A program made the translations under genes and the position numbers. This document shows, piece after piece, positions 16,481 through 28,099 of a stretch of 64,000 bases of DNA (the stretch's first letter is position 1; every line of letters starts with the position of its first letter). The stretch is from an uncultured delta proteobacterium (GTDB lineage: Bacteria; Myxococcota; Myxococcia; Myxococcales; Myxococcaceae): assembly GCA_963771175.1 (NCBI GenBank), contig CAVYSY010000007.1:41782-105781 (forward strand), written 5' to 3'. The notes beneath the pieces are model-generated. The model was not told the origin of the DNA. It saw nothing but the letters and a program-made list of their open reading frames with translations, and did not search any database.

Positions 16481-17540
16481 ATGCTCACCGTCAATGCCTA
16501 CGCGGCCACGGCCGCGACGAAGCCCCTCGGTCCGACGACCATCCAGCGTCGTGACCTCGGCCCGCACGACGTCCTCATCGAGATCAAGTTCTGCGGCATC
16601 TGCCACTCCGACATCCACCACTCTCGCGGTGAGTGGGGTTCGGTGGCCTACCCCGTCGTCCCCGGCCATGAGATCGCCGGGATCGTCGCCCAGGTCGGCT
16701 CCAAGGTCACCAGGCATGCCGTCGGCGACCGCGTCGGCGTCGGCTGCCTGGTCGACTCCTGTGGCGAGTGCGCGAGCTGCCGCAAGGGCGAGGAGCAGCA
16801 CTGCCTCAAGGGGTTCACCGGGACCTACGGCGGCATCGGGAAGGACGGCCAGCTCACCCAGGGCGGCTATTCCACCCACATCGTCGTGACCGAGGACTTC
16901 GTCCTCAAGATTCCCGAGGGCATCGGGCTCGACGCCGCCGCGCCGCTGCTGTGCGCCGGCATCACGACGTACGCGCCGCTGCGCCATTGGGGCGCCGGCC
17001 CCGGCAAGAAGGTGGCCGTCGTCGGTCTGGGCGGGCTCGGGCACATGGCCGTGAAGCTCGCGCACGCGATGGGTGCCGAGGTCACCGTCCTGTCGCAGTC
17101 GCTGAACAAGAAGGAGGACGGCCTGCGCCTCGGTGCGGACCACTACTACGCCACGAAGGATCCGGAGACGTTCAAGAAGCTCGCCGGCTCGTTCGACCTC
17201 ATCGTGAACACGGTGAGCGCGAAGATCGACCTCGACGCCTACCTGTCGCCTGCTGGCCCTGGACGGCGCCCTGGTCAACGTGGGCGCACCCGCGGAGCCG
17301 CTCTCCGTCAACGTGTTCTCCCTCATCATGACCCGCCGGTCGTTCGCGGGTTCGCTGATCGGCGGCATCCGCCAGACCCAGGAGATGCTGGACTTCTGCG
17401 CCAGGCACCGCATCGGCGCCGACATCGAGGTCATCCCGGCCAGCAAGATCAACGAGGCCTACGAGCGAGTGCTCGCCTCCGACGTCCGGTACCGGTTCGT
17501 GATCGACACCGCGACACTGAGGTACGGCAATCCGCCGTGA
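16481..17540 (+). CDS. Zn/NADP-dependent alcohol dehydrogenase (CAD family), one frameshift near 17250
   Basis: GICHSD, GHE, CGECASC and GLGGLG motifs; C-terminus (GSLIGG...DVRYRFVID) is in another frame. Confidence 0.9.
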
Positions 17541-18472: not shown

Positions 18473-18808
18473 TCATGCGTGGGCCTGTTGGCCGACGGCG
18501 GTCATCCCCGGACTCGGGGGCTCCGCCAGCGGGTACACCGCCGTGATGATCTCCCGGTCCAGCCGGTCTCCCACCGGCTCCACCGCCGCGTGGGCCCGGC
18601 CCGAGACGTACACGCCGAGCCCCGTCACCCGCTGCACGTGCGACAGGGGCACCGCCCACAGCTTGCGCGAGAAGCGCCGACGCACGAAGAGCACCGTCTC
18701 TCCGATGCACTTCACCTTCCCGAGCACCGTCCCGTCCTCGTCTCGCACCTTCATCGCGTGCTGAATCGAGCGCCGCTCGAACGGGGATTCCATCCAGTCC
18801 ACCGCCAT
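18473..18808 (-). CDS. DUF2171/PRC-barrel-like small protein
   Basis: [14 protein letters not shown] pattern; GGAGG RBS. Confidence 0.55.
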
Positions 18809-18926: not shown

Positions 18927-19160
18927 CTAGCGGCCGAGTTCCTTGGCCACCGCGTCCACTACCTGCTGATCGGTGGGAAAGCCGAGCGACTCCTTCCGCA
19001 ACACCGTCTTGCCATCCACGGCGATCTCGAAGCTCCCCGAAGGTCCCACCTTCAGCTCCGAGTCCAACTCCAGGTCCTTCTTCAGCGCGGCCGCCGCACG
19101 GACGGCCCGAGGCTTGTAGCCTCAACCACTGCAATAGGTGATGGTGATACGAGCGGCCAT
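18927..19160 (-). CDS. SelW/SelT/SelH (Rdx) family probable selenoprotein, in-frame UGA at codon 13
   Basis: Manual translation MAARITITYCSG(U)GYKPRAVRAAAALKKDLELDSELKVGPSGSFEIAVDGKTVLRKESLGFPTDQQVVDAVAKELGR; AAGGAGG RBS; CxxU and GSFEI..DG...GFP motifs. Confidence 0.9.
19089..19107 (-). promoter_or_regulatory. Putative bacterial SECIS element
   Basis: GGCCG-U-CC-GUGC-GG-CGGCC hairpin at +15 to +33 after the UGA; bulged U, apical loop begins GU. Confidence 0.6.
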
Positions 19161-19270
19161 GTCGGGCCTCCTTCTGGGTGTAGGGATTGAAATAACGAAC
19201 GACGAGCGGCGTGCAAGCGGACAACCCATTCCAGGCCAGGAATCCATTGACGCCCGGGCGCCTCGGGGCC

Positions 19271-24026: not shown

Positions 24027-28099
<4,073 letters not shown>

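Follow-up and report, generated by a model that had tools for sequence, protein, structure and literature searches.

A small Rdx/SelW-like gene with a very likely selenocysteine codon in an Archangium-like myxobacterium

Described SelW-like proteins and the gene in the window

SelW-like proteins with a CxxU motif (Pfam Rdx, PF10262) appear among the 119 families of prokaryotic selenoproteins catalogued in 2026, where the bacterial SelW (SELENOW)-like entry of Table 1, motif CxxU, is given as "predicted with high confidence" (PMC13188914), and they were the most numerous selenoprotein family of the GOS marine metagenome survey, with 427 sequences (PMC2398784). For SelW of Campylobacter jejuni (CJnc60; NF041051, SelTWH_Campy), read-through of the UGA was shown by Ribo-seq and proteomics (PMC11955535). 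The closest solved relative of the protein described here is human MIEN1 (C17orf37; structure 2LJK), whose CxxC motif is redox-active, with a measured potential of -225 mV (PMC3527542). The CxxU SelW-like family is thus long known, and the gene reported below adds a member to it and no new mechanism.

The gene is situated on the minus strand of the window (the whole stretch of 64,000 nt that was analysed) and codes for 77 residues from ATG to TAG, with a single in-frame TGA (Table 1). Its frame starts with MAARITITYCSG, 12 residues that end in YCSG, and after the TGA continues for 64 sense codons, including those for GSFEIAVDG and GFP, up to the terminal TAG (18929–18927). The original prediction, made from the letters alone and without naming the strand, had described this arrangement, from the AAGGAGG ribosome binding site and ATG to the 64 open codons after YCSG-TGA; we could read all of it directly in the minus-strand frame. 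It had also noticed that the gene was missing from the list of open reading frames, and indeed no ORF of at least 50 aa is listed in this frame under translation table 11. GGAG-type purine-rich motifs also precede the ATG of most homologues from the same genus.

The read-through protein, scored with C substituted for U, matched PF10262 with 48.2 bits (cut-off 22.6) and TIGR02174 (CXXU_selWTH) with 46.2 bits (cut-off 34.2), being the only Rdx-family match in the genome. Since the PF10262 match covers model positions 1–73 of 74, it spans the TGA, and the motif C10-S-G-U13 follows the first β strand; this supports the proposed Rdx-type CxxU at the redox position of the family. The best NCBIfam E-value, 7.4e-16, was to NF041051, with 58.2 bits against a cut-off of 88, which leaves the protein outside this equivalog. 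As with C. jejuni SelW, this is a small gene missed by annotation owing to its UGA, although in another phylum. It also resembles the Rdx family in its CxxU near the N-terminus, single predicted Sec, length of about 80 residues, predicted in-frame SECIS and stand-alone gene, and differs in that the host is a myxobacterium. In an alignment of 54 family sequences, Cys10 was the only invariant column, and G42, F44 and P62 were conserved in at least 90 %, so that the G-x-F-E/x-V motif and the downstream FP motif are both present.

An AlphaFold2 model of the protein (mean pLDDT 93) has the order β1-α1-β2-β3-β4-α2, which is predicted to be thioredoxin-like, with a strand at residues 5–10 and a helix from residue 16; C10 closes β1, and U13 lies in the loop just ahead of α1. 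The family profile matched eight solved Rdx proteins, all with the motif at the same position (E-values from 1e-18 to 2e-9), namely 2LJK, mouse SelW (2NPB) and the bacterial CxxC structures 3DEX, 2FA8, 2OKA, 2OBK, 2OJL and 2P0G. The solved proteins are longer, with 96–117 residues, and the aligned chains of MIEN1 and 3DEX carry CxxC where the protein described here has CxxU.

Downstream of the gene there are a 111-aa ORF, without matches in Pfam or NCBIfam, and dapD, and a PLP-dependent decarboxylase gene is divergently oriented. The 111-aa ORF accompanies the Rdx gene at 19 of the 39 loci, dapD at 18 and the decarboxylase gene at 13, and none of the three occurred in loci L046–L065, with flanks of ca. 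1–2.5 kb. These neighbours are shared in close relatives only, and gene order was rejected as an indication of function. A promoter scan gave no site, and its one terminator-like match, inside dapD, is at chance level.

Table 1. Positions of the features discussed; those without a genome handle are numbered within the window, and G000 is the genome under study.
Feature	Position	Strand	Remarks
SelW-like/Rdx CDS	18927..19160	-	family matches, read-through ORF
Shine-Dalgarno-like AAGGAGG	19167..19173	-	6 nt 5′ of the ATG at 19160; read directly
Cys10 codon TGC, first residue of CxxU	19131..19133	-	Cys in 39/39 TGA-type homologues
In-frame TGA, codon 13, putative selenocysteine	19122..19124	-	TGA in 39/40 homologues, TGC in the other
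Second hairpin, taking in GA of UGA	19109..19123	-	minimum-energy fold; may be incidental
Predicted bacterial SECIS	19089..19107	-	7-bp stem, 5-nt loop CGUGC, -11.8 kcal/mol
111-aa ORF, flanked by the Rdx gene and dapD	18473..18808	-	
mreB	24057..25093		
Region around selA	G000:C39:363200-366300 region		
Nine other TGA genes: SelD, FdhA, two peroxiredoxins, PrdB-, TlpA-, DsbA-, AhpD- and UshA-like	G000: C26:43655, C13:13854, C11:4104, C26:112676, C26:111840, C9:61356, C11:123649, C27:17719, C58:79922	-, -, +, -, -, -, +, +, -	heuristic scan
Barrel-like ORF, 337 codons	G000:C6:135884-136897 (L073:1385-2398)	+	outside the window
ORF with WCPPC and two CxxCH	G000:C6 ~135070-135890 (L073:474-1388)	+	
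Cys-type Rdx gene of G044	G044:C109:27852-28067 (L065 / L135)		
Paired Rdx genes	G125:C4:764010-764567; G213:C37:17230-17788; G231:C44:127685-128259		ca. 350 bases apart

Conservation of the TGA and the predicted SECIS hairpin

We examined the codon in a sample of 61 genomes, the one under study and 60 relatives, which are kin, so that the counts are not independent. A homologue of the Rdx gene was found in 40 of them, including 17/17 of the genus, and the alignment suggested in the original prediction gave TGA after Cxx in 39 homologues and a Cys codon (CAPC, TGC) in one, from genome G044. Leaving aside the gene itself, the same TGA is thus present in 38 of 39 homologues, from several families, with a conserved downstream frame (36–88 % identity). 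A TAA in G044 and a second TGA in G030 were considered as recoded codons and rejected, both being ordinary terminal stops.

In the same sample, selA was found in 49 genomes (47 of them over cut-off) and tRNA-Sec in 46. Cross-tabulated by hand, 38 of the 39 genomes with the TGA form have at least one of selA and tRNA-Sec, among them 35 with the two together; in the remaining one, G007, whose completeness is 73 %, neither was found. Another 11 genomes are without either, if G055, with a weak selA fragment of 45 positions, is included; ten of the 11 gave no Rdx match, and the other is G044, with its Cys form. Because the genomes are kin, this co-occurrence of the TGA form with the Sec machinery is a pattern and not a test.

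In a wider sample of the phylum, 71 of 201 genomes had an Rdx match, and there was one TGA in 69 of the 76 matches, whose rows include one from an unpublished genome, G236. The position of the TGA could be parsed in 17 of 30 fetched loci, 15 with TGA and two with Cys, leaving 13 unparsed. Three genomes of a single genus of the same family (G125, G213 and G231) each contain two closely spaced Rdx genes, only one of which has a TGA, possibly a Sec/Cys tandem.

Downstream of the TGA, the mRNA can form a stem-loop in which bases 18–24 pair with 30–36, numbered from the U of UGA. The loop G (19099) is in the second position of the loop, followed by U, and 21 nt separate the UGA from the loop. The bSECIS model (section 5 of PMC13188914) has a loop of 3–9 nt with G in its first two positions, a stem of 4–16 bp, a distance of 16–37 nt from the UGA and a minimum free energy of at most -7.5 kcal/mol; the hairpin lies within all of these ranges, and 38 of 39 homologues also reach -7.5 kcal/mol. 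Where the model allows an optional loop-closing pair, this hairpin has C-C, which is no pair.

Among 35 distinct sequences, 98 % of the 245 cells of the stem are paired, and three pairs show two-sided, compensatory changes, in two cases at third codon positions. The covariation score was matched by none of 500 shuffles, registers slid along the alignment paired in only 27–72 %, and RNAalifold recovered the helix unaided. The loop G is invariant (39/39). The Arg codon of the loop is CGT in 32 of 37 sequences and CGG in the other five, never CGC, whereas genome-wide CGT makes up 6 % of Arg codons and CGC, the commonest, 47 %. The exact arrangement occurs at 163 of the 196,137 TGA triplets of the genome, for a register chosen after the fact. 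The region was no more stable than shuffled sequences (z-scores of -0.62, -0.06, -1.13 and +0.36), and thermodynamic folding did not by itself pick out the SECIS. A search of the 64-kb window with Rfam and ARAGORN gave no matches.

The Cys-type gene of G044, a genome in which neither selA nor tRNA-Sec was found, keeps the hairpin in the same register, with 7/7 pairs and the loop G, so that the hairpin alone is not diagnostic of recoding. Remnant SECIS elements have been reported after a change from Sec to Cys (PMC1794560), and the G044 hairpin is probably such a remnant.

A second hairpin, closer to the UGA, is weakly supported: 81 % of its cells are paired and one pair has a two-sided change, but a register slid by -1 scores the same for covariation (0.125 versus 0.127), and the hairpin is not part of the RNAalifold consensus. 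Its Pro codon is CCT in 23 of 37 sequences, compared to 7 % genome-wide.

Selenocysteine machinery and alternative readings of the TGA

The assembly (9.83 Mb in 58 contigs, 69.4 % G+C, 81.7 % complete) contains another protein 82–86 % identical to named Archangium proteins, and we infer that the host is an Archangium-like myxobacterium. The original prediction had proposed to look for selA, selB, selD and tRNA-Sec, whose absence, together with TGC in relatives, would have pointed to a nonsense mutation. All four are present, and the relatives keep the TGA. The tRNA-Sec scored 71.4 bits (gathering threshold 47) and has the anticodon TCA; a tRNA for selenocysteine is also mentioned in the A. gephyra genome paper (PMC5441343). 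SelD, at 380.8 bits, itself carries an in-frame TGA, in CAG-U-AAK. Genes selA and selB were matched along almost their entire length, but are broken by frameshifts into pieces that score below the cut-off.

The frameshifts in selA and selB make room for the alternative that survives best, namely that this is a true selenoprotein gene of the lineage that has fallen silent here, with both machinery genes truly broken and Sec decoding lost. We thus counted private indels, defined as single-base indels relative to three genomes of the same genus. The selA gene is in six pieces, with 10 private indels in 1340 bases, and selB has two. Contigs of related strains from four public runs are without the listed selA and selB indels, which fits a real lesion or an assembly error alike. 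The indels are not specific to selA, however: the 3.9 kb around it, neighbouring genes included, has 30 (7.7 per kb), and mreB, in the window, has two, these being mostly insertions. Read in their true frames, neither gene has a nonsense codon, selA differing from that of genome G011 by 56 synonymous and 31 non-synonymous changes and selB by 54 and 18, compared to 90, 37 and no nonsense for selA between G011 and G012. In addition, selA is a single uninterrupted match in 16 of 17 genomes of the genus, and the tRNA-Sec, selD and SECIS are intact. We therefore consider loss of decoding very unlikely; the indels in selA and selB seem to be local assembly errors and not gene decay, and the comparisons point to an intact Sec pathway in this strain.

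Still less probable is that the UGA is read as Cys, by a recoded tRNA, or as Trp, under code 4, in which case the product would be an ordinary CxxC or CxxW protein. Most full-length family members do have CxxC, with Cys at this position in 57 of 111 distant representatives, and Trp is found in 21 of the 111 (both pattern counts) and in one database protein (P0002). Nevertheless, TGA terminates ordinary genes of this genome, such as selD and selB, and the tRNA found with a TCA anticodon scores as tRNA-Sec; since TGA ends ordinary genes here, the Trp entries are most simply seen as gene-caller artefacts.

That the TGA is a nonsense mutation or a sequencing error in a CxxC gene, as an assembly error-prone elsewhere could suggest, is effectively refuted by its conservation across independent assemblies, in the 38 other genomes, with a conserved frame downstream; most Rdx matches of the phylum sample also contain one TGA, and there are no private indels near the gene. 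This agrees with the earlier argument that the TGA is not the indel type of error: the 2990 bases around the gene covered by three relatives contain 0 private single-base indels. TGC or TGT in reads at this codon had also been named as counter-evidence, and we approached this through contigs of related strains; one of them, assembled from a public run (X3), extends over the entire stretch, and none of its 32 listed differences falls within the TGA. Public runs of RNA, or possibly of RNA, contained 0.05–0.11 of the words of the stretch. Separately, the window ORFs at 16481 and 22395, which we take to be alcohol dehydrogenase-like and glycosyltransferase-like, respectively, also look frameshifted.

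The machinery genes, the TGA kept in relatives and the SECIS hairpin all support the proposed decoding as selenocysteine. Together, these comparisons favour an intact small Rdx/SelW-like gene in which the UGA very likely specifies selenocysteine by means of the predicted SECIS, with a probability of roughly 0.95.

Predicted function and the wider set of selenoprotein genes

Following the standard bacterial pathway, SelD would make selenophosphate, SelA would use it to convert Ser-tRNA(Sec), and SelB would bind the loop with the invariant G, 21 nt downstream of the UGA, and deliver Sec-tRNA(Sec). That SelB binds this hairpin and Sec is inserted at codon 13 is, judging from the conserved sequence features, highly probable; in the lack of selenium, translation would end after 12 residues. 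There is no room for a signal peptide, so that the protein is likely cytoplasmic. By analogy within the family, it is probably a CxxU thiol/selenol oxidoreductase in which the selenolate of Sec13 would attack an oxidised cysteine or a disulfide of a partner protein, reducing it, Cys10 would resolve the intermediate as a selenenyl-sulfide, and a cellular thiol system would re-reduce the enzyme. It would belong to a selenium-based antioxidant set, together with AhpD-, DsbA- and TlpA-like proteins and two peroxiredoxins predicted to contain Sec. The literature consulted here reports no substrate for a bacterial SelW-like protein.

These additional candidates come from a heuristic scan of all TGA codons of the genome, followed by family searches, which identified nine other genes of known families with TGA at the catalytic position (Table 1); the peroxiredoxin and PrdB-like genes of C26 adjoin. 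Of nine scan candidates compared with the family libraries, one, C3, was dropped as a selenoprotein because it looks like a frameshifted ordinary gene, and another, C6, is the barrel-like ORF described below. The genome would have ten Sec genes of known families, most of them for enzymes of peroxides and disulfides, and in addition a candidate for an exported, barrel-like selenoprotein that is uncatalogued.

The single gene matters for annotation. Among its close database homologues, 13 of 14 lack the N-terminal part with the redox motif, covering 58–71 % of the protein, and one has Trp in the place of Sec; the nine shortened entries inspected all start after the UGA. The active site is consequently invisible in those collections. 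Our literature searches found no description of myxobacterial selenoproteins, although survey supplements may list them; searching the deep-Sep paper by term was likewise negative (PMC12013277), and SelW-like proteins are missing from the selenoproteins listed in 2006 for Anaeromyxobacter dehalogenans (PMC1794560).

Archangium is aerobic. Tentatively, the gene might mark a selenoproteome of soil-dwelling, aerobic myxobacteria that is large but neither annotated nor described, a reading to which we give somewhat less than even odds. If true, the Myxococcaceae would be an aerobic lineage rich in selenoproteins, contrary to the review literature, in which genomes with many selenoproteins are mainly those of anaerobes (PMC9312934), and would offer a genetically workable place to find the role of bacterial SelW-like proteins. 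Since the gene was found in all 17 genomes of the genus, a substrate of a SelW-like protein could be tested in a myxobacterium that can be cultivated.

The barrel-like ORF begins with a signal-peptide-like sequence followed by C-A-G-TGA. It had no match of its own in Pfam or NCBIfam, and PF13557 was matched by one of 18 members of its family; its model is mostly composed of long β strands in a barrel-like arrangement (pLDDT 82). Among 22 near-full-length homologues, 11 have CxxU, eight have UxxU, with two TGAs, and three have CxxC. A hairpin with a GGUC loop covaries in 15 aligned TGA forms and is changed in three Cys forms. No matching entry was seen in the 119-family catalogue as consulted (PMC13188914), and we regard the CxxU/UxxU protein as a candidate new selenoprotein family. 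A thioredoxin-like ORF with WCPPC and two CxxCH motifs ends where the barrel-like ORF begins, and its product is a possible partner of the barrel-like protein.
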